Of a stretch of DNA of 64,000 nucleotides, positions 5,803 to 58,054 are shown one piece after another. A program made the translations under genes and the position numbers. Below the pieces are notes generated by a model. The model was not told the DNA's origin, made no database searches, and saw nothing but the letters and a program-made list of their open reading frames with translations. The DNA comes from Patescibacteria group bacterium (GTDB lineage: Bacteria > Patescibacteriota > Patescibacteriia > UBA9570). The stretch covers positions 23,663 through 87,662 of the forward strand of contig JAJRVJ010000010.1 of assembly GCA_024277435.1 (NCBI GenBank), written 5' to 3'. The stretch's first letter is position 1. Each line of letters begins with the position of its first letter.

Positions 5803-6353
5803 CTACCAAGGCGTATCTTTATACCCTATACTATAGCCAATTCTATTTACAGCAATATGAAGAAAAATAGCTGATATTAGTACTGTTAACCAAGTTATCC
5901 AATCTACATGAACAAATAACGCAATAAATAGCGTTGCTCCTATCACAAAATCTAATTGATCAAATGGAACCCAAGCGGCTCCGGGCTTAATACCAACACG
6001 GCGCTTAAAAAAACTCTTTACAAGATCTCCTGTAAGCGCACCAAATCCCAATAATGCACCAAACCACCAAGGAAAATTAGTATAATCAAACGCCGACCAT
6101 TCATTGAACATGGGATTAATAATGGCTAAATATTTTTGAAATGCAAAAAAGATTGCTCCAAATACTATTCCTGCAATAAAACCACGCCAAGTCTTATGAT
6201 CACCAAATATACGATGCGCACCAAGTTTTCTCCCTCCATCAATAGGAGTAGCTAATGATGAAAAGTTATCCTTTATCATTACCGGCGCCATATTTGCAAT
6301 GCCAACTGGCAAATAAAACCACACTAACTTGCCTACCCAGGCAAAAAACTCCA

Positions 6354-6354
<1 letters not shown>
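5803..6354 (-). CDS. CTP-transferase family membrane protein, CDP-archaeol synthase (CarS)/CdsA-like
   Basis: 183 aa polytopic membrane protein. GDHKTWRGF resembles the CdsA KTWEG signature. C-terminal FKRRVGIKPG...PFDQLDFVIG resembles the CarS/DUF46 motif. Confidence 0.6.
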
Positions 6355-8467: not shown

Positions 8468-10846
8468 TTAATAACGGTGTTTAGCATTATATTGCTTACG
8501 TAATTCTTTTACGATATTTTCACGAATCTGCTCAGCCTCTTTCATTTCTAGCGTACGATTATCAGCTGCGAGTACAAAACGTATACCTAGGGACTTATGA
8601 TTATCTGCTACTTTATCGCCAGTGTATACATCAAAAATTTCGGTATTTTGCAATAAGTCTTTAGATTTATCCTGGATAACTGATTGAATTTGTTTCCATG
8701 TAACAGCATTTTCTACTTCTATGGAAATATCTAAATCAAGCGATGGATAAGCATTAATTTTTTGATACTCTGTCACCGAAGTCATGAGCTCTGAGAATCG
8801 AGGTAAATGAATTTCTGCGTAGGCCAAGTGTTTTTCTATTCCAAATTTTTTGGCAACACGAGAAGAAATCACCCCCATTGTGATGAGATGCTTTTTACTT
8901 GCAACATATCTCACATCAGTAAGTGGATCGAATAGCATGAATGGCGCATTTGCGCTTTCCTCACGCTCGGTTATGATACGTAATTTTGCGTTAATGTTAG
9001 CCTGCGCTAATAATGATTCCACAACACCCTTTAACCTGTAGAATACCGATTCATCATCACCTGTCATAGCAATTCCAACTACTGGGAATTCATTTTCATC
9101 AAAGTACACATGCCCGTATTCAGATAATAACAGTTCTTCCTGATGATTATCTAGATTGCGACGTGCGACTTGAAGTATATTTACCAATAATGTCTGCCGT
9201 AAATATTGTTGCTGTGGATTCATTGGATTCAGAATTTCAATATGCCCATCTACTTCTAATCCAGCATTATTAATATCTTGCTCACTATAAAACGAGTAAT
9301 TGTATGTTTCCATAGCACCCAAGCCTGCGAGCCAGTGAATTAACTTCTGACCGGTATGAAAATCGCTTTGTTTAAATGGAGGTTCCAATGTACCTAATAA
9401 TGGCTGTGGCGCTACTTTGTCATAGCCATACATGCGAGCCACTTCTTCTACAATATCTTGATGATTATGAATATCGGTGCGCCACAATGGAACAGTTACC
9501 TCTATCATACTATCATCTTTTTCTACTACTTTAAATCCTAAACCAACTAACCAGCGATGCGTATCTTCTACAGGAACATCAACTCCGATTAATCTATTAA
9601 TGTAATCTAAATCAACTACTACAACAGTTTTTTCCGGCTCAGCCTCTCCAACGTCAATAACTTCAGATGAAATAGTTGCTCCAGCATATTTTTGAAGTAA
9701 ATCTACTGCTCTCCAAAATCCCACTGTAGACATCGATCTACCTAAACCTTTTTCATGTCGTGTACTACCATCGGTGCGAGCAGCAGCGGTTTGCGCAGTT
9801 GTGCGTATAGTTACACCATCAAATTGCGCTGATTCAAGAATAATACTTGTTGTCCTGTCATTCACTTCTGTTTCCGTTCCACCCATTATTCCAGCTAAAG
9901 CTGTTGCCCGCTTAGAATCTGCAATCACCAACATTGATTCCTCTAATTTGCGATCCTTGCCATCAAGTGTTTTTAGAGCCTCGCCCTTCTTAGCTCTTCG
10001 AACATTAATTTCTTTACCATCTACCTTGTCGTAATCGAATGCATGCAATGGTTGGCCGAATTCATACATTACATAATTCGTGATATCCACAACATTATTT
10101 ATCACCTTTACACCAACGGCAACTAAGCGTTCTTGCATCCAATCTGGTGATGGGCCAATTATAATGTTATTCAACACAGCGCCTAAATAGCGATGACAGC
10201 CTTCAGGATCTTTAATGTTAATAGATAACTCATCTTTTCCAAATTGTTCTGCGAATTGTGTAAAATCTGGGATGGTAAGAGGTGTGTTTAGTACTACACT
10301 TAATTCGCGAGCAAATCCGATATGATTAAATAAATCGCTACGATGTGTAAGTGTTTTATTATCAATATCAATGATTACATCATTTAAATTAAGGGCTTCA
10401 CTTACAGGAGTGCCGTTTGCAGGATCATCCTTGGTAAAGAGATGTATTTCTTCGGCACCATTTAGTATATTAATTTCAGAATTCAAGCAGCACATACCTT
10501 GTGATAATTCACCACGTAATTTCCGCTTTTCAATGGTAATATCTCCAATTTTGGCACCCGGTAACGCAACTGGTAGGCGATCACCAGGATTAAGAATAGC
10601 CTTACCTCCAAATACAATCTGGCGCGGCTCATCTTCGCCTACATCAAATTTACCAATGTTTAAATTATCAGCGTCAGGATGTTTTTTAGCTTCTAGAACT
10701 TCTCCGATAACAATATGTTGCAAGTGTTTTGCTTGCTCATCAATTTCTTCTACTTCTGCAATATGCAAAGTAATGAGATTTGCTAATGTTTGCGGATCCT
10801 CTTTAATATCAATGTATTCTTTGAGCCAATTTAACGATAACTTCAT
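8468..10846 (-). CDS. pheT: phenylalanine--tRNA ligase beta subunit
   Basis: N-terminus MKLSLNWLKEYIDI, B3/4 and B5 domains, about 790 aa. Start moved to the internal ATG at 10846, which lies 10 nt after the reconstructed pheS stop. Confidence 0.9.
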   Translation of the reverse strand: MKLSLNWLKEYIDIKEDPQTLANLITLHIAEVEEIDEQAKHLQHIVIGEVLEAKKHPDADNLNIGKFDVGEDEPRQIVFGGKAILNPGDRLPVALPGAKIGDITIEKRKLRGELSQGMCCLNSEINILNGAEEIHLFTKDDPANGTPVSEALNLNDVIIDIDNKTLTHRSDLFNHIGFARELSVVLNTPLTIPDFTQFAEQFGKDELSINIKDPEGCHRYLGAVLNNIIIGPSPDWMQERLVAVGVKVINNVVDITNYVMYEFGQPLHAFDYDKVDGKEINVRRAKKGEALKTLDGKDRKLEESMLVIADSKRATALAGIMGGTETEVNDRTTSIILESAQFDGVTIRTTAQTAAARTDGSTRHEKGLGRSMSTVGFWRAVDLLQKYAGATISSEVIDVGEAEPEKTVVVVDLDYINRLIGVDVPVEDTHRWLVGLGFKVVEKDDSMIEVTVPLWRTDIHNHQDIVEEVARMYGYDKVAPQPLLGTLEPPFKQSDFHTGQKLIHWLAGLGAMETYNYSFYSEQDINNAGLEVDGHIEILNPMNPQQQYLRQTLLVNILQVARRNLDNHQEELLLSEYGHVYFDENEFPVVGIAMTGDDESVFYRLKGVVESLLAQANINAKLRIITEREESANAPFMLFDPLTDVRYVASKKHLITMGVISSRVAKKFGIEKHLAYAEIHLPRFSELMTSVTEYQKINAYPSLDLDISIEVENAVTWKQIQSVIQDKSKDLLQNTEIFDVYTGDKVADNHKSLGIRFVLAADNRTLEMKEAEQIRENIVKELRKQYNAKHRY

Positions 10847-10856
10847 ATATGTATTA

Positions 10857-11897
10857 CTAGAATTGCTTATTAAATCTACTATCCCCCGCCATGAACAAAC
10901 GAATGTCATCAATTCCGTACTTCATCATTGCGAGACGATTAATTCCCATGCCAAAGGCAAAGCCTGTGTATTTTCCTGGCTCATATCCAGCGGATTCAAA
11001 TACTTTTGGATGAATCATTCCACAACCTAGCATTTCTACCCAGCCAGTATTTTTACATACAGAGCACCCTTTTCCATCACAATTTACACATGAACAATCC
11101 GCCTCAAATCACGGCTCAACATACGGAAAATAACCTGGTCGCAAGCGAATTTGTACTTCACGTTGCAGTATTTGCGACATTGATTTCTTTAATACATACG
11201 TAAGATTGGCAACAGAAATATTATCTCCAACTACAAATCCTTCTAACTGGTAAAATGTATGGTCATGTGATGCGTCGGTAGATTCGTTCCGGAATACTCT
11301 ACCAGGAACAATTACACGGAGCGGTGGTGTGAATTTTTCCATCATACGTACCTGCATATTGGAGGTATGCGTACGCAGCACCTGCTTTTTACCATCCTTA
11401 CTATCCTCTTTAACATAAAATGTATCTTGCAAATCACGCGCTGGATGTGTAGGTGGAATATTTAAAAATTCAAAACAGTAATCATCAGTTTCTAATTCAT
11501 TACCTTCCATCACGGTAAATCCCATTGAATAGAAAATATCGATAAGTTCTTCTTGCACCTGTCGCAGTGGATGAATATAGCCACGCTGAGCTGATGTGCC
11601 TGGTAGCGTAGCATCAAAAGAACCTAGCTGATCCTTACCTTCGCTTCGTTTTTTAATTTCATCACTAAGGCGTTTCTGAATGTCTGATTTTACTGTATTA
11701 GCCAACTGACCAATGGTACGCTTTTCTTGCTTATCAGAAATATCCTTCAAACTTTTCAATGCTGCAGTTAATTTCCCATTTTTTCTACCTAAATATGTAT
11801 CTTTTAAGGCTTGTAACTGCTCTTTTGAAGATACATTCGCTAAATCGCTAGTGAAATTAGCTTGAATATCCTTAAGTTGTTGTTGTAAATCACTCAT
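10857..11897 (-). CDS. pheS: phenylalanine--tRNA ligase alpha subunit, interrupted by an in-frame TGA at 11109-11111
   Basis: The ORF-track piece 11109..11897 ends ...[12 protein letters not shown] at TGA. The same frame continues [83 protein letters not shown] to a TAG at 10857-10859. That reproduces the conserved PheS C-terminus; compare E. coli FPFTEPSAEVDV...LGCGMVHP...GFAFGMGMERL...NDLRFLKQF. Confidence 0.85.
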
Positions 11898-12319
11898 ACT
11901 GTATCTTTAGCCTTTGTTTGGCGAGTTATTGGCGTCTGCTTTTTTGTTAAATAAAATCCCTCTAGCACAATTAGCCCAATAAGCAGCATTCCAACGGACC
12001 ATAAATTAAACACATTTTTCGAAAATAACATCAGTGAGATAATCACTAGTAGTGCAAACCAGATTGCCTGCCGAATAGATGGAGTTACTAGACGAAATGT
12101 TACTGTAGTACGATGTCTAATTCGCTTAATAAGTACTCGAACTCCCAAACCTAACAGCGCGAACGAACCGAGTAGTGAGAAGAATAGCGATGCATAGAAA
12201 ACAAAAATTCCTACTAACCCAGATAACTCCGGATCTATGTAAAACAATACAGTTAGCCAGGCTGCCCAGCTAACTATAGTTACGCTTGCGACTGATATCA
12301 AGAAGCGTTGTAATGACAT
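11894..12319 (-). CDS. small integral membrane protein (4 predicted TM helices), unknown function
   Basis: 141-aa hydrophobic ORF. Its stop overlaps the pheS start by 4 nt (ATGA coupling). Confidence 0.5.
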   Translation of the reverse strand: MSLQRFLISVASVTIVSWAAWLTVLFYIDPELSGLVGIFVFYASLFFSLLGSFALLGLGVRVLIKRIRHRTTVTFRLVTPSIRQAIWFALLVIISLMLFSKNVFNLWSVGMLLIGLIVLEGFYLTKKQTPITRQTKAKDTV

Positions 12320-12376: not shown

Positions 12377-15300
12377 TTATGACCCAAGACGTTCCTTACC
12401 TGCAATTTGTGATATAGCCCTCCATTCATCTGCGCCAACTTCAAAGTCTCCATTACCAGCGGGTACGGTATCGGCGAATGCGTCCATAAAAAATCTATCT
12501 ACGTTTGTTGTAGCTAACGCATTATCACTTACAGCTCTAGCAATAAGCTGTCCAGCTGGGCCACTTTCAAATGTAATGCCGTATGCCTCAATAATAGGAG
12601 GTTTAGCGCTTCGTAATGCTTTCTTAATAGCCCGCAATGCAGCTCTTGGCCCCATACCATTATCAGATTCGTGAAATGCAAGGGTTTTTTCTAAATCATT
12701 TACTACTGATTGGATAACCTCTGGATCTTCTAGCGCTGATTGAGCATCTAAATCTAATTCATCAGCCACAACAATATCTTCTGGCCCTCCATCACCCATA
12801 ACAGAGTCCGAAGCATCAACGGTAGCGCTATCTACCCGAGCCATTCCAGCTGACTCTACATCAACCGCTCCTGGCCCAGCACCAATAACTTCATCAACAG
12901 CAACAATTCCTGCGTTCTCTGGAACAACAGCTGCAGAGGCTTGTAGCGCAAGCCAATCTTGATAAGCAATTGCACTAGCCTCAGCTAATGTACTATCTTC
13001 TATAAAGGAAGTTGATCCATATACACTCATTTCATCACCCAGGTGCCCTATAGCACCAGTAGTAAAGTCTCCTGAGTGAGATCCAATTGCATGCCATCCA
13101 TCTTGTGCCATACCTAAGTATTCATCTGAATGCACTGCCCAAAATTCTTGAAAGGTACTAGGAACATCGGTAACCTCTAATCCCATATCGCTCGCTGTGC
13201 CGACATCAATAACTCCTGGGGAAAAGCTTGTGGCGGCAACTTCAACTGAAGATCCTGAGGCTGTACTAGCAACTAATTCTCCACCAGCGGCATGTAGTTG
13301 GAGTTCTTGAGCTAAGTCGTTACCTTGTAATATAGTTCGGGTAGCTGTATCGAATAATTGGATCGTAGCACTACCATCACTTACTGATAGTACTGGAACT
13401 ACCGCATCAGCCTTATCTATCCATAACTGCGCCCCTGTAGCTGCGTTTATAATTGGCTGCGCATCAGCTGCCCCAGCCACAGGCATTTCTGTGTTATGCA
13501 TTAAATCTACTAAGAAGCGATTAGCCCAAGTTGCTTTACTACCCATACCTTCTGTATAGCCCAATGTTTCCGCATTTTCCATTACTTGGGGACGTAAACT
13601 CTGCCAAAACCCCTCACCTTTTGCTACGGTCATTTCAGTCCAAACAGCATCTGGAATATCAGCTACCTCGGCACTCACCGCTTCTGCCACGGGTTCTGCA
13701 GGAGTCGCTGATGGCGTAGGTTCAACAGGTATAGGTGATGCGGCGGCAGATGTTGATTCGGGAGTAGCTAGCTCCGGAGATACAGAAGTAGGCGCGGGTG
13801 CTGGTAATGGTTCTGGCGAGGGTGTAGCTTCAACTACTGGTGCCGAAGTTGGTTCAGGTGTTGGTAAGGAATCGGATGTATCTGGCACTCCCATTACAGC
13901 TGCACTATCCGCACCAGACTCTGTAGCGCTAGTTACTAAATCGCTCGCCCCTCCAAAAAAAGCGTAGATTGAATTCTTAACCTCGCTTAATGTCTCAAAT
14001 ACACGATGGCCAACAGTGGTTTCTCCAAACATATCGCTAGCCCCACCAGCGGCATCCCATATAAATCCACTACCAAATGCTGCTGCTATTGCTCCCGTGA
14101 TTATTTTTTGTATTTTTCTACGTTCCTGTAAATCCTGGCGCACTGTAAATAATTTATCATCAAGCTCCGCAAATAATAGTCCAAGTTTTTGCTCTAAATC
14201 CATTGCATCTGGTCCATTAAGAATTTCCTGACGTTTATATTTCATGTAATGCCGTGAAGCATTATGATACAACAGAGAATTAATTTTACTTCCTTGAATA
14301 GAACTTCTAGCCTCAAAATGCACTATGGCCTCACCAAAGCGTTGCCAATCACCTTCTGAACTATGTTCATCAGGCCACGCACCTTTCGCTAACGCGGCTT
14401 CGGCGGATGCAATTTGTTTTTGTTGAACCAAACCATCAAAACCAATATATGTCATCCCTGAACGTGCTAGCACAGCTGCGCCAGCTCCAAGTGACGCCGC
14501 TACAGTTACTGGAGCACTACCAGCCACAGCAATAGCACCTAAGGTACTAGCTCCAGTTGCTAATGCTATACTTGTAGCTGTTCGCATAGACATCATGTTT
14601 AGCGCTGCATTGACAAGTTTACTATCTGGCCGACTACCGCGCGCCCTTTCATATAGTGCGCCTGCATTCATATCCCCTAATCTTTTCCACACACCTTTAA
14701 TTGTTTCACGTAATGGATGATCAATTATTTCACGCTCCGCAATCTCATCAAGTACACTTAATCGTTCAGCTAGAGCTAATTGAATCTTCTCTTTAACAAA
14801 TTGCGTTCTCTCAGCTGAATACTCATCACGTTTTGCTTCAACATCAGCAACTTCAACCCTACCTCGTTCAAGTTCTTTTTGAAGGTGAATATATTCAAGA
14901 CGCAGCTTACGTAAATTATCTGCTGCTGTGCCAATAGTATCGTCAAGACGATCTAATTCATCTTTATATTCTTTTGGAAGATCTTCCTCAGTAAAACCGT
15001 GTTGCGCTAATTTATCTTGCCGAGCCTCTTCAAAGCTACTAAGAACCGGACCTGGATCTGGTGGTGGTTCTGGTAAATCTGAATCAAGCCGCACCTCCAT
15101 AACAGACAAAGCCAAGCTACCGCGTTGCTGATCTTGATTTCTCTTTAAAGCTTCAGCCATTAAATTCTCTTGAATTACTCGGGTATCACCATGAGCCTCC
15201 ATGATTATTCTTTCAATATCACTTGCGCTCAACATATCAAATACGACCCCGCCATTGTCAGATAAAATAAGATCACCTCGCTCTAACTGCAGTTCTTCTC

Positions 15301-15922
15301 CTGGATCAATAAGATTCCTTAAAGTTTGGAGGCGACCCCTTATAAATACATATACGGAAACTTGTTCGGGTAGCTGTTGTCGTTCTGCGTAGCTAATGTT
15401 TCCATCTGCAGAAATTCGTACAAGAGAAGCAGAATATTCCGCATCTTCCGGAGCGTTTGGATTGGCGTCAGCTAGATTAAATACCGACTCTAAATTATTA
15501 CCAACAGCAGAAATATTATTTGCAACAATAACACCAATACCTTCAGCCATCATATGACCATTTGTTTCACTACCAGAAACCTTCTTTATGCCGTGTCCAG
15601 TAACAATACCTATTGCTACAGACCCATCGCTTTCGACGCTTCTCACAATATTATTCTGATTTTCCCTAACCAGTGAGCCCTTTTTCCCACCATAATGTGA
15701 TTGGGCATGAATTTCTACTACAGGATTCACAGCATGAAACTCCTGATGCGGTGCTCGCTCAGGTTTTTTCCAATATTCTGCGGTAGCGCCAAATGTGTTA
15801 ACTCCCAACTCTAAATGCTGCGGGCGACGATCCGCCTCAGCTCGTCGTTCTGAGGGCTTTTTCCAATCAGCCGTTCTACGTTCTACGTTACGGGGTGTTC
15901 CTACCATATATATGTTAGACAA
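12377..15922 (-). CDS. large multidomain protein: N-terminal PP2C-like phosphatase-like domain, coiled coil, Gly/Ala-rich hydrophobic segment, Pro/Thr-rich linker, and a C-terminal domain of unknown function
   Basis: 1181-aa uninterrupted ORF. The N-terminus has an imperfect internal repeat WKKPSERRAE / WKKPERAPHQE. GIVTGHGIKK...SVYVFIRGRLQTL...GDLILSDNGGVVFDML resembles PP2C/SpoIIE motifs. Coiled-coil roughly aa 330-400. Hydrophobic block TATSIALATGASTLGAIAVAGSAPVTVAASLGAGAAVLA. Linker PTPEPTSAPVVEATPSPEPLPAPAPTSVSPELATPESTS. Visibly more GC-rich than its neighbours. Confidence 0.6.
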   Translation of the reverse strand: MSNIYMVGTPRNVERRTADWKKPSERRAEADRRPQHLELGVNTFGATAEYWKKPERAPHQEFHAVNPVVEIHAQSHYGGKKGSLVRENQNNIVRSVESDGSVAIGIVTGHGIKKVSGSETNGHMMAEGIGVIVANNISAVGNNLESVFNLADANPNAPEDAEYSASLVRISADGNISYAERQQLPEQVSVYVFIRGRLQTLRNLIDPGEELQLERGDLILSDNGGVVFDMLSASDIERIIMEAHGDTRVIQENLMAEALKRNQDQQRGSLALSVMEVRLDSDLPEPPPDPGPVLSSFEEARQDKLAQHGFTEEDLPKEYKDELDRLDDTIGTAADNLRKLRLEYIHLQKELERGRVEVADVEAKRDEYSAERTQFVKEKIQLALAERLSVLDEIAEREIIDHPLRETIKGVWKRLGDMNAGALYERARGSRPDSKLVNAALNMMSMRTATSIALATGASTLGAIAVAGSAPVTVAASLGAGAAVLARSGMTYIGFDGLVQQKQIASAEAALAKGAWPDEHSSEGDWQRFGEAIVHFEARSSIQGSKINSLLYHNASRHYMKYKRQEILNGPDAMDLEQKLGLLFAELDDKLFTVRQDLQERRKIQKIITGAIAAAFGSGFIWDAAGGASDMFGETTVGHRVFETLSEVKNSIYAFFGGASDLVTSATESGADSAAVMGVPDTSDSLPTPEPTSAPVVEATPSPEPLPAPAPTSVSPELATPESTSAAASPIPVEPTPSATPAEPVAEAVSAEVADIPDAVWTEMTVAKGEGFWQSLRPQVMENAETLGYTEGMGSKATWANRFLVDLMHNTEMPVAGAADAQPIINAATGAQLWIDKADAVVPVLSVSDGSATIQLFDTATRTILQGNDLAQELQLHAAGGELVASTASGSSVEVAATSFSPGVIDVGTASDMGLEVTDVPSTFQEFWAVHSDEYLGMAQDGWHAIGSHSGDFTTGAIGHLGDEMSVYGSTSFIEDSTLAEASAIAYQDWLALQASAAVVPENAGIVAVDEVIGAGPGAVDVESAGMARVDSATVDASDSVMGDGGPEDIVVADELDLDAQSALEDPEVIQSVVNDLEKTLAFHESDNGMGPRAALRAIKKALRSAKPPIIEAYGITFESGPAGQLIARAVSDNALATTNVDRFFMDAFADTVPAGNGDFEVGADEWRAISQIAGKERLGS

Positions 15923-16423: not shown

Positions 16424-16708
16424 ATGAATGAGCTACCTAATCAACCAGATACAGAGTCTCAGGTAGAAAATATGCAATCTGTTGGTTCTTCAGCAGGCCT
16501 CAAAGCCCTCGCTTTGGTGGGAATCACAACAGGTTACATATTTGGGCCATTAATCATTATTGGTGGTGCAGGTTGGTATTTAGGGGAGCTTATTAATGCG
16601 AAGTGGGTAGTATTTGTTGCCGTTTTAATATCTTTCATTATTTCTAATGTATTGATATTCAAGCAAGCTCCGAAAGCCACAAGAAAAATTGCGATTAATA
16701 AGAAGTAA
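16424..16708 (+). CDS. atpI: ATP synthase protein I / AtpZ-like small membrane protein
   Basis: 94 aa with two TM helices, immediately upstream of atpB. Alternative start at 16472. Confidence 0.6.
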   Translation: MNELPNQPDTESQVENMQSVGSSAGLKALALVGITTGYIFGPLIIIGGAGWYLGELINAKWVVFVAVLISFIISNVLIFKQAPKATRKIAINKK

Positions 16709-16714
16709 ACACGA

Positions 16715-17476
16715 ATGATTGAAATTAGTTTAAAGCCTGATGTTCTAGGCATATTTGCAGGATTCCCAATTACGAATGCACTTTTAGTATCTGTACTTAC
16801 CACCATTGTATTATGTGTAATATTTATGTTTGTAGCACGAAGAATGAAGCAAGTGCCTGGTAGATTGCAATTATTTGTAGAAACATTTCTTACAGGAAGT
16901 TACGAATTCGTACATGGCGTTACTCAGAACGAAACAGTAACCAAACGAATGTTTCCTATTTTTACAACATTATTACTGTTTTTCTTAGCTGCTAACCTCA
17001 CTGGATTCATTCCAGGACTTGCAGCACTATCCTTTAATGATATGCCATTATATAGATCAGCGACTTCAGATTATGCGCTGATTTTTGTTATTACGATGGT
17101 GATGTTTATTGGATGGCAGTTGGTTGCTATAGTTTCTGGTGGTTTATTTGGATATGTAAAAAAGTATATCAACTTCTCAAGCCCAATGGATTTTGTAATG
17201 GGACTTCTTGATATTATTGGTGAGAGTGCAAAAATCGTTTCCTTATCGTTTCGTTTGTTCGGAAATATTTTTGCTGGAGAAGTGATTGCCACAGTAATGC
17301 TAGTGTTAATGCCGTATGTAGCACCAGTACCTTTTGCACTTTTAGGATTGTTGAGCTCAGTAATTCAGGCAGCGGTATTCCCTATTTTGGTTTTGATCTT
17401 CTTTAATATGGCTATTGTCGTAAAAGAAGAAAAGCAAAAAGAAGTGCTAGTAGCAGAAGGCGCTAGTACGAAATAA
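16715..17476 (+). CDS. atpB: F0F1 ATP synthase subunit a
   Basis: Conserved SLSFRLFGNIFAGE motif with the essential Arg. Polytopic. Confidence 0.92.
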   Translation: MIEISLKPDVLGIFAGFPITNALLVSVLTTIVLCVIFMFVARRMKQVPGRLQLFVETFLTGSYEFVHGVTQNETVTKRMFPIFTTLLLFFLAANLTGFIPGLAALSFNDMPLYRSATSDYALIFVITMVMFIGWQLVAIVSGGLFGYVKKYINFSSPMDFVMGLLDIIGESAKIVSLSFRLFGNIFAGEVIATVMLVLMPYVAPVPFALLGLLSSVIQAAVFPILVLIFFNMAIVVKEEKQKEVLVAEGASTK

Positions 17477-17519
17477 TTTTATCAATATTTAATAAACAAC
17501 TAATAAATAATACACAAAT

Positions 17520-17750
17520 ATGGAATTAGAAGCAGCACGTTTAATCGCAGCCGGATTAGCAATGGGACTAGGTGCCATTGGTTCAGGTATTGGTGAAGGT
17601 ATCGCCGCTGGTCGCGCACTAGAAGCAATGGGACGTAACCCAAGCCTTAAAGACGAATTATTCACTCGAATGATTGTAGCTATGGCTATTACGGAATCTA
17701 CCGCTATTTATGCATTGGTAGTAACTTTATTAATCCTTTTTGCTGTTTAG
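17520..17750 (+). CDS. atpE: F0F1 ATP synthase subunit c
   Basis: 76 aa hairpin proteolipid. GxGxGxG and the carboxylate E in AITESTAIYALVV. Confidence 0.92.
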   Translation: MELEAARLIAAGLAMGLGAIGSGIGEGIAAGRALEAMGRNPSLKDELFTRMIVAMAITESTAIYALVVTLLILFAV

Positions 17751-17756
17751 TCCCCT

Positions 17757-18254
17757 ATGGGTCAATTATTTGAAGCACTTGGCTTAGATCTTAAAATCCT
17801 TATTGCGCAGTTAGTAAACTTCGCAATTCTATTTGCAGTACTATATAAACTTGGTTACAAACCAATTATGAAATTTGTAGCTGAACGTACTGCAACTATT
17901 GAGGAGGGTGTAAAACATGCAGAAGATGCCAAAAAAGCTTTAGCGGACGCTCAGCAAGATCAGGATCGTATTCTGGCTGAAGCTCGCAAGGAAGCTCAAT
18001 CAATTATCACTGAAGCTCGTGAGCAAGCTGTAAAGCAAGCTGATTCCATTGTTGGAAAAAGTAAAGAGCAAACAGCAAAGGTTGTTGATAAAGCAAAACA
18101 AGATATTCGCAGAGAGCATGAACAAATGATTCAACAGGCTAAAGCAGAGCTATCGGATGTTGTATTACTGGCAACAGAAAAGGTATTGCAAGAAAAAATT
18201 GACGCGCCAGCTGATAAGGCGTTTGTTGAAAAAACACTCTCTCAAATAAAATAA
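17757..18254 (+). CDS. atpF: F0F1 ATP synthase subunit b
   Basis: N-terminal TM followed by a long charged helix. Operon position. Confidence 0.85.
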   Translation: MGQLFEALGLDLKILIAQLVNFAILFAVLYKLGYKPIMKFVAERTATIEEGVKHAEDAKKALADAQQDQDRILAEARKEAQSIITEAREQAVKQADSIVGKSKEQTAKVVDKAKQDIRREHEQMIQQAKAELSDVVLLATEKVLQEKIDAPADKAFVEKTLSQIK

Positions 18255-18257
18255 CAT

Positions 18258-18650
18258 ATGAAATTAACCGCCAAACATTACGCTCAAGCATTGTATGAAC
18301 TATCTGCTGAAGTTGATAGCCCTGAGAAATCCAAGTACATGAAGAAATTCTTAAGTACCATGTATTCACGTGGTCATATTAAATGGCTACCTACAGTTGT
18401 ACGTGAATTGGGGCTTATTGAAGAACGCGCTTCTGGAATTACACATGTACGAGTTACCACTGCTCGTGAAAGCGATAGTAATGAAGTAAAGAAAATCGTA
18501 CAAGAAGCTATAAGCGAGGATAATATTGAGTTAACCACAGCGGTTGATCCAGTACTCCTAGGTGGAATGCGCATTGAAACACGTGATAAGCGCTGGGATT
18601 TGTCTGTTCGTGGACAACTGCAAGCACTTATTCATACAATGCAACGATAG
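18258..18650 (+). CDS. atpH: F0F1 ATP synthase subunit delta (OSCP), short form
   Basis: 130 aa. Operon position between atpF and atpA. C-terminal LLGGMRIE...[10 protein letters not shown] matches the delta C-domain. Confidence 0.8.
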
Positions 18651-18690
18651 TAAATATTTAATTGAAGAACGAATTACGAATAAGAACGTT

Positions 18691-20223
18691 ATGGCTGAAG
18701 TAAAAGATTCAATTGTTCAACAACTCAAAGAAGAGATTGCTGATTTTAAAACTTCTATTCAAAAGGAAGATATCGGCACCGTTGTTGAAGTAGCTGACGG
18801 AATTGTAAAAGCCGTTGGTTTAGCGCAAGTACAAGCCTCCGAAATGGTTGAGTTTGATAATGGCGTGCTTGGTGTAGCGCTCAATCTAGAAGAAGGTTCC
18901 GTAGGTATCATGATTATGGGTGATTACACAGGTATCTCCGAAGGAATGAAAGTAAAAGGTCTTGGCCGCATTTTAGAGGTGCCGGTTGGAGAAGCGATGA
19001 TTGGTCGTGTGGTTGATGCACTTGGTAAAGCTAAAGATGGAAAAGGAGATATTAAATCTGATAAAACGTACCCGATGGAACGAGTTGCACCTGGTGTGAT
19101 GACACGTAAATCTGTTCATCGACCAATGCAAACTGGTATTAAATCTATTGATGCCATGACACCAGTTGGTCGCGGTCAACGTGAATTGATTATTGGTGAT
19201 CGTCAAACTGGCAAAACTGCTATTGCTATTGATACCATTCTTAACCAAAAAGGTGAGGATGTTATTTGTATCTACGTAGCAATTGGTCAAAAGGAAAGTA
19301 AAATCCGTCAATTAGTAGCTCGCCTAGAAGAAGCCGGTGCAATGGAATACACTATCATTGTTACTGCCTCAGCTGCAGAGCCCGCTGCCCTAAACTACCT
19401 AGCTCCGTATGCTGGTTGCGCCATGGGTGAATACTTCATGGATAATGGCAAAGATGCATTGATTATCTACGATGACCTTTCAAAGCATGCCGTTGCTTAC
19501 CGACAAATTTCCCTCTTATTGCGTCGTCCACCAGGACGAGAAGCGTATCCTGGAGATGTGTTTTATGCTCACTCTCGCCTACTGGAACGCGCTGCTAAAC
19601 TGAATGAAGATAATGGAGGCGGATCACTAACTGCCCTACCAATTATTGAAACTCAAGCTAATGATGTATCAGCCTATATTCCTACAAATGTAATTTCCAT
19701 TACTGATGGACAAATTTATTTGGAGACTAACCTATTTAATAAGGGTATGCGTCCGGCGGTAAATGTAGGTTTATCTGTATCTCGCGTAGGTGGCGCTGCT
19801 CAAATTAAGGGCATGAAAAAAGTTGCTGGTAACCTACGTCTCGGATTGGCTCAATACCGAGAATTAGAAGCCTTTGCTCAATTCGGATCCGATCTTGATG
19901 ATGCTACAAAACAACAACTAGCGCGTGGTAAACGACTAGATGAATTATTGAAACAAGATCAATACAAACCACTACGTGTAGAAGAACAAGTTGTTCAACT
20001 CTATACTGTAAATGCAGGATGGATGGATGATATTGAACCAACAAAAATCAAACAATTTGGTGAAGGACTACTGGAATATGTAGATCAAAATGCAAAAGAA
20101 ATCTACTCGAAAATTGTTGAAGAAAAAATGTTTGATGAAGCTTGGGAAAAGAAACTAGAAGAAGTAATTAAAGCGTATAAGAGCATTCTGGAAACAGAAA
20201 TGTTCGTACCAAAAGCTGATTAA
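18691..20223 (+). CDS. atpA: F0F1 ATP synthase subunit alpha
   Basis: Walker [41 protein letters not shown]. Start set to MAEVKDS, since the ORF track includes 43 spurious upstream codons. Confidence 0.95.
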
Positions 20224-20231
20224 TTGCCATT

Positions 20232-21164
20232 ATGCCAGTACAAGCACGCGAAATTAAAGGACGTCTCAAATCCATTAAAAACACGAGTAAAATTACTCAT
20301 ACAATGGAATTGGTTGCTGCTGCAAAAATGCGTCGAGCAGTTTCTTCAGCTCTTGATAGCCGACCATATGCTGCACTTGCCTGGGATCTCATGAGTCGCC
20401 TACGTGATTCAACAGCAATTACCGAAGGTGATTCTATCATGCGCTTCTTTGATGACGTTAAGCCATTAAAAGATGGTAAGAATCATACAACCATTATCCT
20501 ACTTACTTCTAATCGTGGATTGTGTGGGGCATTGAATACGAATGTACTTAAAAAAGTGATTCCGTATATTTCTAATCACAAAGATGAAGTTATAGATGTT
20601 ATTGGTGTAGGAAAAAAGGGTGTAAGTATTCTTAATAGCTTTGGACATAAATCTGAACTTGCTTATGAAAAAGATGATTCTGCTAAAGATGATGAATCCA
20701 TTCGTGATCTTGTAGTATATGTACATAAGAAGTTTAAGGATGGTAAGACCGGAAAAGTAATGGTTGCCTACACAGATTTCAAATCTGCTGTAATGCAAAA
20801 TGCTACCCTAAAACAAGTATTCCCTTTTACAAAAAATGATGACATCGCGGCTGCGGTAGATAATATTGATGAAAAGAAAGAGCGTGTTGAAAAACCTGAT
20901 GTACAATTCCCATATGTGTATGAACCAACTGAAGGAATTGTACTTGAATACCTTATTCCGCGGGTACTCACATCTGAAATTTATCAAGCATTGTTAGAAA
21001 GTAATGCCTCCGAGCATAGCTCTCGAATGATTGCGATGAAAAATGCAACAGAATCAGCGGCAGAAATGGCCGATGAGCTTAAATTGGAATTTAATAGGGC
21101 TCGTCAAGCTGGTATCACCCAAGAAATTGCGGAAATCTCAGCTGGATCAGCGGCAATTTCTTAA
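20232..21164 (+). CDS. atpG: F0F1 ATP synthase subunit gamma
   Basis: MPVQAREIKGRLKSIKNTSKITHTMELVAAAKMRRA N-terminus. C-terminal ITQEIAEI...SGSAA. Confidence 0.92.
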   Translation: MPVQAREIKGRLKSIKNTSKITHTMELVAAAKMRRAVSSALDSRPYAALAWDLMSRLRDSTAITEGDSIMRFFDDVKPLKDGKNHTTIILLTSNRGLCGALNTNVLKKVIPYISNHKDEVIDVIGVGKKGVSILNSFGHKSELAYEKDDSAKDDESIRDLVVYVHKKFKDGKTGKVMVAYTDFKSAVMQNATLKQVFPFTKNDDIAAAVDNIDEKKERVEKPDVQFPYVYEPTEGIVLEYLIPRVLTSEIYQALLESNASEHSSRMIAMKNATESAAEMADELKLEFNRARQAGITQEIAEISAGSAAIS

Positions 21165-22589
<1,425 letters not shown>

Positions 22590-23006
22590 ATGGAAAAAAC
22601 ATTGACTCTAAAACTCATCACTCCTGCTAAAACTGTTTTTGAGCAGGAAGTGGAGCAAGTGATTTTACCAACTGAGGCTGGTGAAATCACTGTATTGCCA
22701 AAACATACCTACTTGGTGAGCATTCTTAAACCAGGTGAAATGCTAGTAACTGCCGATGGGAAAGAATCGCCCGTAGCCGTAGCAGGAGGCGTTATTGAAA
22801 TGTATGATAATACATTAGTAATCTTGGCTGACTCCGCGGAGCATCCAACGGAAATTAATGTAGAGGAAGCAGAGAAACGTGCGGAAGAGTTGGCTCGAGA
22901 AATTGAGCAGCAAACCGACATGGACTTGAATACCTATAATACATTGCAGCACTCACTTGCGCATGAGCAAGCCCGCTTACGTACTGGTAAAAAGTGGCGG
23001 AAATAA
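22590..23006 (+). CDS. atpC: F0F1 ATP synthase subunit epsilon
   Basis: 138 aa. LKLITPAKTVFEQEVEQVILPTEAGEITVLPKH N-terminal beta-sandwich. Confidence 0.88.
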   Translation: MEKTLTLKLITPAKTVFEQEVEQVILPTEAGEITVLPKHTYLVSILKPGEMLVTADGKESPVAVAGGVIEMYDNTLVILADSAEHPTEINVEEAEKRAEELAREIEQQTDMDLNTYNTLQHSLAHEQARLRTGKKWRK

Positions 23007-40882: not shown

Positions 40883-41125
40883 TTATTTTGAATAAATTGT
40901 GAGTATTTCATCAATCATTGTCTTGCGTTTTTCTTCGCTGTCATCTGGAAACATCAATTCAATCATCTGCATAACTAGTTCTTTTTTATCAGCTGCAGAC
41001 TCATTAACATTAGTAGATAACATCTCCATTAACCCATCAAGACTCTCTAGATCCTCTTTTGAAAATGTTTTTTCTAATTCACTATCTTTTATGTGCTTCA
41101 TATATATATTATTTTTCGTCTTCAA
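40883..41125 (-). CDS. small acidic alpha-helical protein, paralog of the 15915..16214 product; overlaps the 3' end of the GGDEF gene
   Basis: 80 aa. Shared motifs with the 99-aa protein (EDLxSxD...LM, DDxEK...EE(E/K)R.T.I.EIL.Y). 17-nt overlap with the upstream gene. Confidence 0.5.
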   Translation of the reverse strand: MKTKNNIYMKHIKDSELEKTFSKEDLESLDGLMEMLSTNVNESAADKKELVMQMIELMFPDDSEEKRKTMIDEILTIYSK

Positions 41126-42650
41126 AATGAATTCTTAGTATTGCCTCAATCATCCTAGCATGTTTTTCTCCTCCAGCACCAGGAAGCATGAGAGGGATCA
41201 TTTTAGCTACCATTCCAGCCACTGCAAGATGATCTTTTTTAAATTGTACTTCTCCACCTTCAGGCATCTCACTCGCCCGCCGAGATTCACTCTCACCATC
41301 CCGTGATTCAGCCGCATCAACCGATACTCTAAATTGATTCAATACCTCTCTACTCGCTAAATAATCTGCCATGACATCAACAATTGGATCAATCACAGAC
41401 AAATCCTCTCCTGGAAATACCCTGCTCAAACCTTTCTTCGCCATGTATTTATAGTAATTAAAATCCCTGGGCGCCTTAGGTAGGGTTTCTGAAAATTGTG
41501 TTATTACCGATGTGCCAGGATGACTAGATGATAAATGTTTTGAGTGTATAGCAGCTTTATCACCATTTATCATCTCATGCTCTAATACGGGTGCGTCATG
41601 AGCCTCCTCTTTGTACAATAATGTAAATCCTATACTCGCAGTCATTGGTTTACCATCACTTCTTTTAACGGATTCAATGGCTTGTTGAAGCTTAAATAAA
41701 ATGCGCTTCACCTGAGGCGGAACATTCATGTCTACGTCATTAGAAATGATTGCCTGATCAATTGAATCGCCTGGTTTTGTCTCGGCGGTTAAATCAATAT
41801 CATTGATGATAAAAAACAACTCATCTCCTCCCGGACGCCCTTTAATATCAATGCCACGCAATGCGCCCTCAAGGGCCATTGCCATCGGGGTGAGAATATC
41901 TCGGTCTACTCCAGCGTGCCCTTCTGGATGACGCTCATTTTCCAACTTAAAATCATTTAAATCGATAACCACAACCATCATGCAGCGGTTATCCGGTCCA
42001 TGTTCTAACCTCTTTACCTCTACCTCATGTAATTTTTGAGCGTAGGCCAAGCTTCTTACAAAGCCCGTTAAGCTATCGGTGGCAGCCCGCCGTTCAAATT
42101 CTTTCCTTAGCAACAACTTGGCTTGATGTTCGGCTTTTGCTCTATAAAATGCATAGTGATCGATCTCACTCCTCATACTCTCTACTCCCTCCAAGCGTAT
42201 AGCTACCTCCTGTCGAATTTCTTCCACCTTAAGACAAATAACCTGATGCAACCTAATGTCAGATTCAACTATTAATTCCCTTTCCGGTACCATGGCATAT
42301 GCCTCCATACTCTTCCAATCAGCCTCACTCATTTCATGGCGCTTCAAAGCTTCGCTTAGTAAGCGATCATGAGCAGCTCGCTTACCACCATGCATAACGC
42401 GATCTTCTAACTCAGCTTTGATTTCAGCAGCCCGATCGGAAATTGTAAATTCACCACTGGTAAGAGTGCGATCTTCAAGAACATCTGATAATTCTGATAT
42501 TGTAGGATCCGAAGCCTGCGGATCATCAATAATAGCTTGAATACGTTCTGAGCTCGTAGTCATCTCTTCACTAACGCCTACAGCTCGTGACTCAACGCCT
42601 GGTTTTTGTGTCGGTTCTCCCCTCTTACCACTAGCGGGCTTCTTAGCCAT
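41109..42650 (-). CDS. GGDEF-domain protein (diguanylate cyclase-like, GGDEL variant with RxxD I-site), N-terminal coiled coil, C-terminal extension of about 170 aa
   Basis: DSLTGFVRSL...IDLNDFKLENERHPEGHAGVDRDIL...RGIDIKGRPGGDELFFII aligns with the GGDEF fold (D.LTGL, DxFK, GHxxGD, RxxD + 5 + GG[DE]EF). More GC-rich than its neighbours. Confidence 0.75.
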   Translation of the reverse strand: MAKKPASGKRGEPTQKPGVESRAVGVSEEMTTSSERIQAIIDDPQASDPTISELSDVLEDRTLTSGEFTISDRAAEIKAELEDRVMHGGKRAAHDRLLSEALKRHEMSEADWKSMEAYAMVPERELIVESDIRLHQVICLKVEEIRQEVAIRLEGVESMRSEIDHYAFYRAKAEHQAKLLLRKEFERRAATDSLTGFVRSLAYAQKLHEVEVKRLEHGPDNRCMMVVVIDLNDFKLENERHPEGHAGVDRDILTPMAMALEGALRGIDIKGRPGGDELFFIINDIDLTAETKPGDSIDQAIISNDVDMNVPPQVKRILFKLQQAIESVKRSDGKPMTASIGFTLLYKEEAHDAPVLEHEMINGDKAAIHSKHLSSSHPGTSVITQFSETLPKAPRDFNYYKYMAKKGLSRVFPGEDLSVIDPIVDVMADYLASREVLNQFRVSVDAAESRDGESESRRASEMPEGGEVQFKKDHLAVAGMVAKMIPLMLPGAGGEKHARMIEAILRIHFEDEK

Positions 42651-49588: not shown

Positions 49589-50485
49589 ATGAAATTTTCA
49601 ATTATTATACCTATCTATAATGACCCTCGTATTGTTGCTTGCGTGCGGAGTCTCACGGAATTAAATTACGATAAAAATGAGTATGAAATTATTATTGTTG
49701 ATAATAATTCTTCTACTAATATCCAGGAACTACTACGAGGCATTGAGTATCGCTACATCCTAGAAACTGCTGCTGGCTCGTACAATGCTCGTAACGCTGG
49801 AATCACAGCTGCTTCTGGTGAGTGGTTAGCATTTACCGATTCCGATTGCGTAGTTGATAAAGAATGGCTATCTACAATTGAGCACTACCTCGCAAAAGAT
49901 GATGTATCTGGAGTAATGGGATATTCAGCTGGTAATAACGCTAATGCTGTAGCTGCGTACGAACAGAAGATGTACGAAGAAAATATTGCTGGTTTCACTG
50001 ACGCTCAAGAACTGCGACGCATCGACACACGTAATTTTGCAGTTAAACGACCCGTAATAGAAACCATCGGAGGATTCACTAAAGATATTAAATATGGCGG
50101 TGATATGGAGTATGGAGCAATGGCTCACGAAGCTGGCTTTACTATGGTATACGCTCCAGACGTTATAGTTACCCATACTAATCCAACACACTTACCAACA
50201 CTTCTCGCTAAACGTGTCCGCCAAAATGCTGGTAATATGCTATTACTTACACATCATACGGATGTGTTTATTCAAGAATATTTCCCGCACTTATTGAGAT
50301 ACAAACCCAGTACTGCAACTTGGTTGCGCTGGGTAGTGCTATGGCCCATCATTAAGCTACACTTCCCATTTTCTGGTATATTCATTACACTGCTACCACA
50401 ACGCATTGGATATTTTTATTTTAAGGCCATGAATGTACTAGCCATGCGGTTTGGTCAATTAAACTACTTTATACATAAACAATGA
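49589..50485 (+). CDS. GT2 family glycosyltransferase
   Basis: FSIIIPIYNDPRIVACVRSL...EIIIVDNNSS...FTDSDC (DxD). Confidence 0.8.
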   Translation: MKFSIIIPIYNDPRIVACVRSLTELNYDKNEYEIIIVDNNSSTNIQELLRGIEYRYILETAAGSYNARNAGITAASGEWLAFTDSDCVVDKEWLSTIEHYLAKDDVSGVMGYSAGNNANAVAAYEQKMYEENIAGFTDAQELRRIDTRNFAVKRPVIETIGGFTKDIKYGGDMEYGAMAHEAGFTMVYAPDVIVTHTNPTHLPTLLAKRVRQNAGNMLLLTHHTDVFIQEYFPHLLRYKPSTATWLRWVVLWPIIKLHFPFSGIFITLLPQRIGYFYFKAMNVLAMRFGQLNYFIHKQ

Positions 50486-51441
50486 ATCATCAAGAACCCC
50501 GTGTAAGCATTGCTGTTTTATCCTGGAACTCAAAAGATATTACCAAAGATTGCATTGAATCAATCCTGGAGAACGTAAAAGTTCCTTACGAATTAATTCT
50601 TATCGAAAACGCTTCTCACGATGGTAGTGCTGAAATGATTCGTAAAGATTATCCTCAAGATAAATTCCCTCAAATTATCTCTATATTTAATGATTAAAAC
50701 CTTGGTTTTGCCGGAGGAAATAACCAGGCCTACGAAATTGCAAAAAGTGAATACTTTCTATTACTAAATTCAGACACAGTTGTTCACGATAATGCGATTG
50801 ATGCAATGGTTGAATATTTGGATACTAACGAAGCGTATGGTGGAGCCACTACTCGCCTACTCAATCCGGATGGCAGCACGCAATATTATATGCATCGTCG
50901 TTTTCCAACTGTATGGCGCTTACTACCATCGCTTTTTCATAAACGCTTCCGTTGGTTTAAACCCTACATGGTTACGCAGTATCTGTACTTAGATAATGAT
51001 TTTTCTAAAGATTTTGATATCGATCAAGCCGCTGGTGCGTGCATGATGGTGCGTAAATCGATTATTGATGACTTTGGCGAATTACTCGATGTCAAACGTT
51101 TTCCACTCTATTATAACGATGTTGAACTCAGTTACCGCTTACATCAAGCTGGCTGGAAAATTCGTTGTTTAAATACCGTAGCTATTACACATTTGAAAGG
51201 CACAAGTGTAAAAACACTTAGCTTCTTTAAAAATGGTAAAGAATACTCCTATGCATCACTCTCGTACTTCAAAAAGCACAAGATGTATTTCAATTATTGG
51301 ATATTAAAACTACTCTACCTCGAATTATTTCTGATTCTGAATATGTTTACTCCTCTTTTATTATTACTAGGAAAAATAGATAAGAAGCAAGCTAAATATC
51401 GCTGGTCAATTATTCCCGTTATCCTTACTCTTCGCCTTTGA
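50482..51441 (+). pseudogene. GT2 family glycosyltransferase interrupted by an in-frame TAA at 50695-50697
   Basis: ORFs 50482..50697 and 50806..51441 are in the same frame. The translation reads ...IISIFND*NLGFAGGNNQAYEIAKSEYFLLLNSDTVV..., so the stop falls just before the conserved GT2 NLGFAGGNN motif. Confidence 0.7.
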
Positions 51442-54831: not shown

Positions 54832-56430
54832 ATGAGCAAAAAAGCCGTTGTTATCGGTCTAGATGGAGCCACCTTTAAACTCTTAGATCCGTTAATGAAA
54901 GAAGGTATAATGCCTAATCTTGCGAGTATTTCTAATGAAGGTACTCGAGCGGTGTTGAAGTCTACCATGCCACCTTACACAGCTCCAGCTTGGACAACCT
55001 TTGCAACTGGCGTAAATCCTGGAAAACATGGTTGTTACGACTTCCTACTTCCTACAGATAACCTAGAAGAGTTTGATTTATGCAATAGTACGTATATACG
55101 TACCGATACAGTGTATGAATTATTACACCAAGCAAATAAACGGTCTATTCTTATTAACTTGCCAAATAGCTTTCCGGCCAAGCTAGACTCCCCTACTATT
55201 ACAAGCTTACTTACTGTTGGTGATCAAGCAGTGTATCCGGAATCGTTAAAAGAAAAATATCCAGAATTGAAAAACTACCGACTAACTCCAGATGAGTCTC
55301 TGCAACTCAAAGGTAAAATTGATGAATATATTGACGACATCATAGAGGTTGAGAAGGGTCACATGGAAGCCGTACGAACACTCTGGGAAAATGAGGAGTG
55401 GGATTTTTTCTTCTATCTATTTTCTGCAACTGATTGGATTTCCCATGCAATGTTCGATAAATTATTGCACGACCGCCATCCGAAAGCCATGGAATTATTC
55501 AAATATATTGATGATCAAATAGGCTGGATTAAAGAGCGCCTACCTAAGGATACTAATTTATACGTTGTATCCGATCACGGCTTTAAAGTGTTCACAGAAA
55601 CATTTTATTTCAACAAATGGCTAGAAGAAGAAGGTTATCTCATAACGAAAACAGCGGATTCGGAAGCTTTTCATAGAGGCATCAGCAAGCAAGATGAACA
55701 ACGCAGGGCTATCCAAAATAGCAAGGCACTTAAAGTGAGTGTAAATAAAGACATGATGCGCTGGATTGGAAAAAGTAAAACTGTAGAGCGTGGCGCGAAA
55801 TGGTTTTATCATAAAGTAGCTAAACCGTTTTTACCCATCAAAATTAATTTGGATGTAATAATTGATTTTGAGAATACCAAAGTGTGTTTTCCAAAAGGTC
55901 GCACCATGACCGCTATTTATATTAACGACGGTAGAAAATATAACAACGGTAAACCACTCACAGATAATGAATATATTGCACTACGCGATGAGGTTATTGA
56001 AAAGCTAAGCAACCTGAAGGGGCCCGACGGAACGAATGTAACGCCTAAAGTATATACTAAGGAAGAAATTTATGGCGATAACGTTCCGGAACGCTGTCCT
56101 GATTTATTTTACGAATTTGGTGACTATTGGTTTGTAGGTCAATTCCATTCTAGTGAATTATTTGTTGATGAGGTTTCAAACAAACATGATGCATATGGAA
56201 TTTTTATTGCCTGGGGACCAGGTATTAAAAATGGTAAGGAACTTACCGAGCATAATATTGCGGATGTAACTCCAACGCTATTGCATGATATGGAGCAAGC
56301 TGTACCAAGTTATATGGATGGCGCAGTGATGGATATTTTTTCCTCACCACGCGATGTGCAAGTTGTTAAACGTAATTTAGTAAAAGATGTACAAGCACTT
56401 GATGAACTCATTGATTCAATTGATATTTAG
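54832..56430 (+). CDS. alkaline-phosphatase-superfamily NPP-type phosphodiesterase/nucleotide pyrophosphatase-like protein, paralog 1 of 3
   Basis: VVIGLDGATF. Catalytic-Thr region PPYTAPAWTTFATGVNPGKHG. Metal motif VSDHGF. C-terminal LIDSIDI. Confidence 0.75.
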   Translation: MSKKAVVIGLDGATFKLLDPLMKEGIMPNLASISNEGTRAVLKSTMPPYTAPAWTTFATGVNPGKHGCYDFLLPTDNLEEFDLCNSTYIRTDTVYELLHQANKRSILINLPNSFPAKLDSPTITSLLTVGDQAVYPESLKEKYPELKNYRLTPDESLQLKGKIDEYIDDIIEVEKGHMEAVRTLWENEEWDFFFYLFSATDWISHAMFDKLLHDRHPKAMELFKYIDDQIGWIKERLPKDTNLYVVSDHGFKVFTETFYFNKWLEEEGYLITKTADSEAFHRGISKQDEQRRAIQNSKALKVSVNKDMMRWIGKSKTVERGAKWFYHKVAKPFLPIKINLDVIIDFENTKVCFPKGRTMTAIYINDGRKYNNGKPLTDNEYIALRDEVIEKLSNLKGPDGTNVTPKVYTKEEIYGDNVPERCPDLFYEFGDYWFVGQFHSSELFVDEVSNKHDAYGIFIAWGPGIKNGKELTEHNIADVTPTLLHDMEQAVPSYMDGAVMDIFSSPRDVQVVKRNLVKDVQALDELIDSIDI

Positions 56431-56432
56431 TT

Positions 56433-58052: not shown

Positions 58053-58054
58053 AC

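Follow-up and report, generated by a model that had tools for sequence, protein, structure and literature searches.

An in-frame TGA in pheS

PheS is essential, and the pheS gene on this Patescibacteria contig is interrupted by an in-frame TGA, which raises the question of whether the codon is decoded in the cell or is a lesion in one gene of one record. From the evidence of the window (the whole 64-kb stretch of DNA that was analysed) and of related loci, the TGA appears to stem from one isolated base change in a glycine codon and not to be a decoding signal. The gene is on the minus strand (11897..10857), with the TGA at 11111..11109 and the final TAG at 10859..10857, and the features of the locus are the following:

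11894..12319, minus strand: membrane-protein gene (141 aa), upstream of pheS; its TGA stop overlaps the pheS ATG (ATGA)
11109..11897, minus strand: pheS 5' part, 262 codons followed by TGA; N-terminal domain and class II core through the Phe-pocket strand ...YFPYVEP
11109..11111, minus strand: in-frame TGA in the context CCG-TGA-T, standing where relatives have Gly (GGN)
11031..11033, minus strand: ATG, the first in-frame start after the TGA, 25 codons downstream of it
10857..11108, minus strand: pheS 3' part, 83 sense codons and TAG, frame unchanged; Cys-rich knuckle and motif 3
8468..10846, minus strand: pheT (PheRS beta subunit), intact, immediately downstream of pheS

The original prediction placed this TGA in the pheS frame directly after ...GYFPYVEP and had the frame continue unbroken through the C-terminal region to the TAG at 10857, and both points are borne out by the sequence and by Pfam. 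The 5' part matches PF02912 and positions 2-172 of the 246 positions of PF01409 (E 5.7e-59), and the 3' part (LGCGMIHP...SRFNKQF) matches positions 176-246 of the same profile (E 8.2e-27). Because PF01409 is contiguous across the TGA (172 to 176), in one frame and with no indel, this is one pheS gene carrying a pure substitution; neither a frameshift nor a frame that is open by chance would fit. Read through the TGA, it encodes the N-terminal domain PF02912 and the complete class II core PF01409 including motif 3, and the protein matches solved PheS structures with E values down to 4e-82. The full domain set of PheS is obtained only with this read-through; the ORF itself is interrupted, and the truncated product (262 aa) is without motif 3. 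The 262-aa product is identical to a database protein (P0001) found on a single NCBI contig of 97,660 bp, and the best PheS matches are from uncultured Patescibacteria (Kerfeldbacteria-like), with at most 69% identity.

Genomic context of pheS

The window has 39.4% G+C and a dense content of housekeeping genes (pheST, gyrB, the L1/L11/nusG/secE cluster, an F-type ATP synthase operon, metG, glyS and pyrG), and it also holds rhamnose and glycosyltransferase genes. The product of pheT has the Pfam domains tRNA_bind, B3_4, B5, tRNA_synthFbeta and FDX-ACB, and homologues of the 141-aa membrane protein occupy the same position in two related loci (L081 and L084). Directly upstream of the pheS cluster there is an ORF of 1181 aa with no Pfam match (12377..15922, minus strand) and a long central region rich in Pro, Ala, Ser, Thr and Glu, which may be a large surface or secreted protein.

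In the nearest relatives, L081 (1..2481), L082 and L083, genes for V/A-type ATPase subunits (A, B, D) are located just upstream of the membrane-protein-pheS-pheT-gyrB block, whereas in the window a complete F-type ATP synthase operon (16424..23006, plus strand) lies near the pheS block on the opposite strand, so that either the type of ATPase or the gene order varies between related Patescibacteria at this locus. The ATP synthase delta (OSCP) subunit (18258..18650, plus strand) is short, with 130 aa that cover only profile positions 65-169 of 172. The possibility that atpF and atpH, which share a frame, are one interrupted gene was rejected, as they are two genes and the delta subunit has its own starting Met.

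Other genes of the window include a match to the CarS-like CDP-archaeol synthase family (PF01864, E 5e-28) between gyrB and secE (5803..6354, minus strand), in a bacterial genome, and a 513-aa GGDEF (diguanylate cyclase) protein encoded inside a dTDP-rhamnose (rmlABCD-like) gene cluster (41109..42650, minus strand). Three tandem paralogues of about 535 aa, each with a PF01663 (type I phosphodiesterase/nucleotide pyrophosphatase) domain, are found at 54832..59656 (plus strand), followed by a 487-aa ORF without a Pfam match (59649..61112).

The interrupted codon in related genomes

The column at the TGA is Gly in 20 of the 22 aligned relative proteins and Ser in the other two. At the DNA level, 83 related pheS loci carry GGT (31), GGC (25), GGA (19), GGG (6) or GCN (2) at this site, that is, 81 GGN codons and no stop codon, in a count that drew on a genome-contig scan whose returned relatives have at most 58% identity and do not include the source genome. 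The nearest NCBI relative (L081) uses GGA, which is a single G>T step from TGA. The residue had been given as Ser in E. coli by the original prediction, and the aligned residue is indeed Ser in solved bacterial PheS structures (FPFTEPS), but it is Gly in the closer Patescibacteria relatives; across the 83 loci and the solved structures, the column takes small residues only (G, S, A). Of all the codons one step away from TGA, counted by the codon usage found here, GGA accounts for 20%, so it is unremarkable that a Gly codon was struck, and this is no evidence for the decoding of UGA as Gly.

Over the 83 codons past the TGA, the four nearest relatives are 84-87% identical to this pheS, a higher figure than the roughly 75% of the upstream core, and the 3' part keeps all the columns that are invariant in the alignment of relatives. 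As there is no decay past the TGA, the lesion is recent or not real. Among the 119 non-self PheS homologues listed, none ends at the TGA site. Two of them, PheS proteins of related Patescibacteria (P0034 and P0074), are also short, with 256-258 aa; they are without the N-terminal coiled-coil domain PF02912 and have a complete catalytic core, and one of the two sits on a 365-kb contig and was seen in four sources.

TGA as a terminator in the window

TGA ends nine other genes in the window, and at four of these ends the stop overlaps a start codon (ATGA), as it does between the membrane-protein gene and pheS. Two residues ahead of its TGA, TatD has already covered its Pfam profile in full (253 of 253), and a separate RmuC gene comes next in the same frame; the two would be fused if TGA were a sense codon, which indicates that TGA works as a terminator here. 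Two mid-ORF TGAs were rejected as internal, the first (24656) being the true TatD stop before the separate RmuC gene and the second (32067) being located ahead of the start of a gene. Among the 20,139 codons of the 55 genes of the window, the one in pheS is the sole in-frame TGA, in agreement with the earlier statement that no other ORF is broken by TGA; 1,369 of the codons counted are Gly codons. A UGA-reassigned genome would have numerous in-frame UGAs where Trp or Gly is conserved and would not terminate with UGA; the window shows neither feature.

A second interrupted gene

The window holds one more interrupted gene, which was absent from the original prediction, and a systematic screen gave no others beyond it and pheS:

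50482..51441, plus strand: GT2 glycosyltransferase gene, otherwise intact, with an in-frame TAA at 50695..50697

This is the third of three tandem GT2 genes, and it reads ...IISIFND-TAA-NLGFAGGNNQ..., with 71 and 247 codons on the two sides of the TAA in one frame. The PF00535 profile is matched from position 1 to 56 before the TAA and from 63 to 165 after it, and the read-through product matches 1-165 contiguously. Relatives of this protein are full length (about 320 aa), with up to 81% identity. The column at the TAA is variable in them (T, D, E, S, R, Q and others), and a GAA>TAA change is a possible origin of the stop. The occurrence of two fresh stops of different kinds (TGA and TAA) within 64 kb points to a generic stop-creating process and not to a decoding specific to UGA.

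Origin of the pheS TGA

The substitution is unique to this record, the rest of pheS is undecayed, TGA terminates other genes of the window and, as described below, no recoding signal accompanies the codon. The simplest history would be a GGA>TGA change, G>T on the coding strand and C>A on the plus strand of the window. Its likeliest source would be a mistake in base calling, assembly or polishing, or else a minority variant that entered the consensus, and under any of these the organism would make a normal 346-residue PheS with Gly at the site. The case for a one-off change of this kind is built on the lack of a stop in all 83 related loci, the GGA codon one step away, the lack of decay and the second, unrelated stop in the GT2 gene. 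The gene also has the two marks of an internal-stop lesion that is assembly-derived or very recent, being one substitution from the sense codon of its relatives and undecayed elsewhere. Assembly errors account for many of the pseudogenes with internal stops in public assemblies, and the count of such pseudogenes tracks assembly accuracy (Cooley and Wright 2024, PMC11017572). An error, an assembly artefact or a minority variant in the consensus of this single metagenome-assembled contig is here considered the probable explanation, with a chance somewhat better than even.

No second assembly of the species was found in the protein, Logan, JGI and ENA collections. Exact look-ups of the 262-aa PheS fragment, the 141-aa protein and PheT gave no record of another assembly, the homologue search with the 141-aa protein returned the same NCBI contig only, and when metagenomes were scanned with the variable N-terminal portion of PheS, the only matches were relatives with at most 35% identity.

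Some observations count against an artefact. Frameshifted genes are not evident in the window, and a low-power test for private deviations, with leave-one-out controls, counted none for the query at the columns that are otherwise invariant in PheS, GT2 and PheT, against 1-2 for several relatives. The window thus looks clean otherwise, as far as a test of such low power can tell, and two nonsense codons without other visible noise make a slightly odd error spectrum.

The same observations bear on a second explanation, in which the TGA is a real and very recent nonsense allele of the sampled population; this is possible, but we regard it as doubtful. As neither frameshifts nor missense noise is seen at conserved columns, the base could plausibly be a true one, and the undecayed state of pheS fits a recent event. 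Such an allele could survive if a near-cognate tRNA (typically tRNA-Trp) spontaneously read UGA at a low level or if there were an intact pheS elsewhere (at a second locus, in other chromosome copies or in other cells of the population), or the lineage could be doomed. However, PheS is essential and the truncated product is without motif 3, and in such a gene a nonsense allele carried by the majority would not be expected to last. In E. coli, RF-mediated release is slower when the last residue before the stop is Pro, and the pheS TGA comes directly after a Pro codon (CCG), a point that may speak for the allele. Low-level translation through in-frame stops is documented by proteogenomics for Salmonella pseudogenes (PMC9122581). 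On the other hand, the +4 base after the pheS TGA is U, and a stop followed by U has been reported to lower read-through (PMC5289835). The restriction of the column to small residues (G, S, A) is also unfavourable, since the insertion of Trp may not be tolerated there.

Search for recoding signals

Selenocysteine insertion in bacteria depends on a UGA with a SECIS hairpin directly downstream, and PheS is not known as a selenoprotein. The original prediction had called for a search for a SECIS-like structure downstream and for suppressor or unusual tRNA genes, and neither appeared in the window. The 96 nt past the UGA fold with an MFE of -14.5 kcal/mol, against a shuffle mean of -16.1 kcal/mol (z +0.67), and no Rfam family reaches the gathering threshold in all 64 kb, with only noise at E<=10 around pheS and no SECIS. 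A selenocysteine or stimulatory structure was accordingly rejected, as shuffled sequence folds equally well and no Rfam match was obtained. No stem-loop of the SECIS type is thus present immediately 3' of the UGA, and the homologues have Gly, Ser or Ala at the site, not Cys or Sec. ARAGORN found no tRNA gene of any kind in the 64-kb window, and no release factor gene is among its annotated genes. The features expected of programmed read-through, a conserved stop and a leaky context or structure, were both absent from pheS.

Site-specific programmed recoding in a Patescibacterium of standard code would have UGA read as Gly by a tRNA-Gly(UCA), in an ambiguous early stage of code 25, or else as Trp or Sec, and it is very unlikely here. 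It has in its favour that the site is a Gly column and that the phylum includes lineages with UGA=Gly and UGA=Trp (PMC4032931; PMC13092985). Nevertheless, a programmed site should be conserved, and the stop is shared by none of the 83 related loci; a single TGA stands against 1,369 Gly codons and nine genes that end in TGA; there is no significant fold, no Rfam match and no tRNA in the window; the relatives never have the Cys that selenocysteine would lead one to expect; the other interrupted gene carries TAA; and 20% of one-step TGAs would fall on GGA by chance. Highly improbable too is that this organism is a living ambiguous intermediate toward code 25, with a standard code that terminates at UGA yet occasionally reads it as Gly. 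If the pheS TGA were decoded, it would give a rare view of the beginning of stop-codon capture, in the phylum where UGA=Gly evolved. The original prediction had offered read-through or recoding on one side and error on the other. An error or one-off mutation is the side that gained support, from the uniqueness of the stop among the 83 loci, the GGA>TGA step, the lack of decay and the second stop; recoding lost ground for want of structure, conservation and a tRNA in the window, and with U at +4.

A split PheS alpha, in which the 262-aa fragment joins a C-terminal fragment with a start of its own to form the active enzyme, could draw on the in-frame ATG at 11033, but it is barely credible: a restart there would lose 25 residues, 10 of them invariant and the Cys knuckle included (in the alignment of relatives, the invariant columns of the lost stretch run from E265 to E288), the Met is shared by most aligned close relatives, all without the stop, so it is no newly evolved start, and no locus among the 83 is split. 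Genome-wide reassignment of UGA (translation table 4 or 25) has support from the existence of such lineages in the phylum, but it is as improbable as anything considered here and, for this window, is refuted for practical purposes by the nine TGA gene ends with their four ATGA overlaps, by the complete TatD profile and the TatD-RmuC fusion that it would entail, and by the location of the TGAs of real genes at gene ends, with the one in pheS as the sole internal case in 20,139 codons; the original prediction had held it unlikely, and this is well supported.

Comparison with known systems

UGA is read as Gly in Gracilibacteria, Absconditabacteria and JAEDAM01 and as Trp in the family JAKLIH01 (PMC4032931; PMC13092985). 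The JAKLIH01 reassignment was validated (NAR 2026) on four counts: in-frame UGAs are numerous, a tRNA-UCA is present, RF2 is missing and UGA does not serve as a stop (PMC13092985). The locus described here shares the phylum with the code-25 and JAKLIH01 lineages, and its UGA lies on a column that is Gly in relatives. In contrast to their many UGAs per gene, tRNA-UCA, lack of RF2 and lack of UGA termination, it has one UGA in 20,139 codons and at least nine UGA ends. Two of the four lines of validation used for JAKLIH01 were examined in the window, and it showed neither the many in-frame UGAs nor a UGA that fails to terminate.

Selenocysteine insertion has in common with pheS an in-frame UGA in a functional gene, but pheS differs in having no hairpin (z +0.67), no Cys homologues and no Rfam SECIS. 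The pseudo-pseudogenes of Salmonella (PMC9122581) are similar in that a fresh stop could still give a little full-length protein. However, the read-through in Salmonella is reported to concern mainly UAG with an adjacent C, while the pheS stop is a UGA followed by U in an essential gene (PMC9122581).

A further parallel is with the artefacts described by Cooley and Wright (PMC11017572), although the pheS stop is known from the consensus of a window with no detectable frameshifts or other noise. With them it shares a lone stop in an otherwise perfectly conserved gene of one assembly, and a second lesion nearby. The record should be read as flagged for quality, with at least two internal-stop lesions in 64 kb, and the 262-aa "PheS" of the databases (P0001) as a truncation product and not a natural variant. 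The TGA of pheS is thus an internal-stop lesion of the ordinary sort, found in a metagenome-assembled genome.
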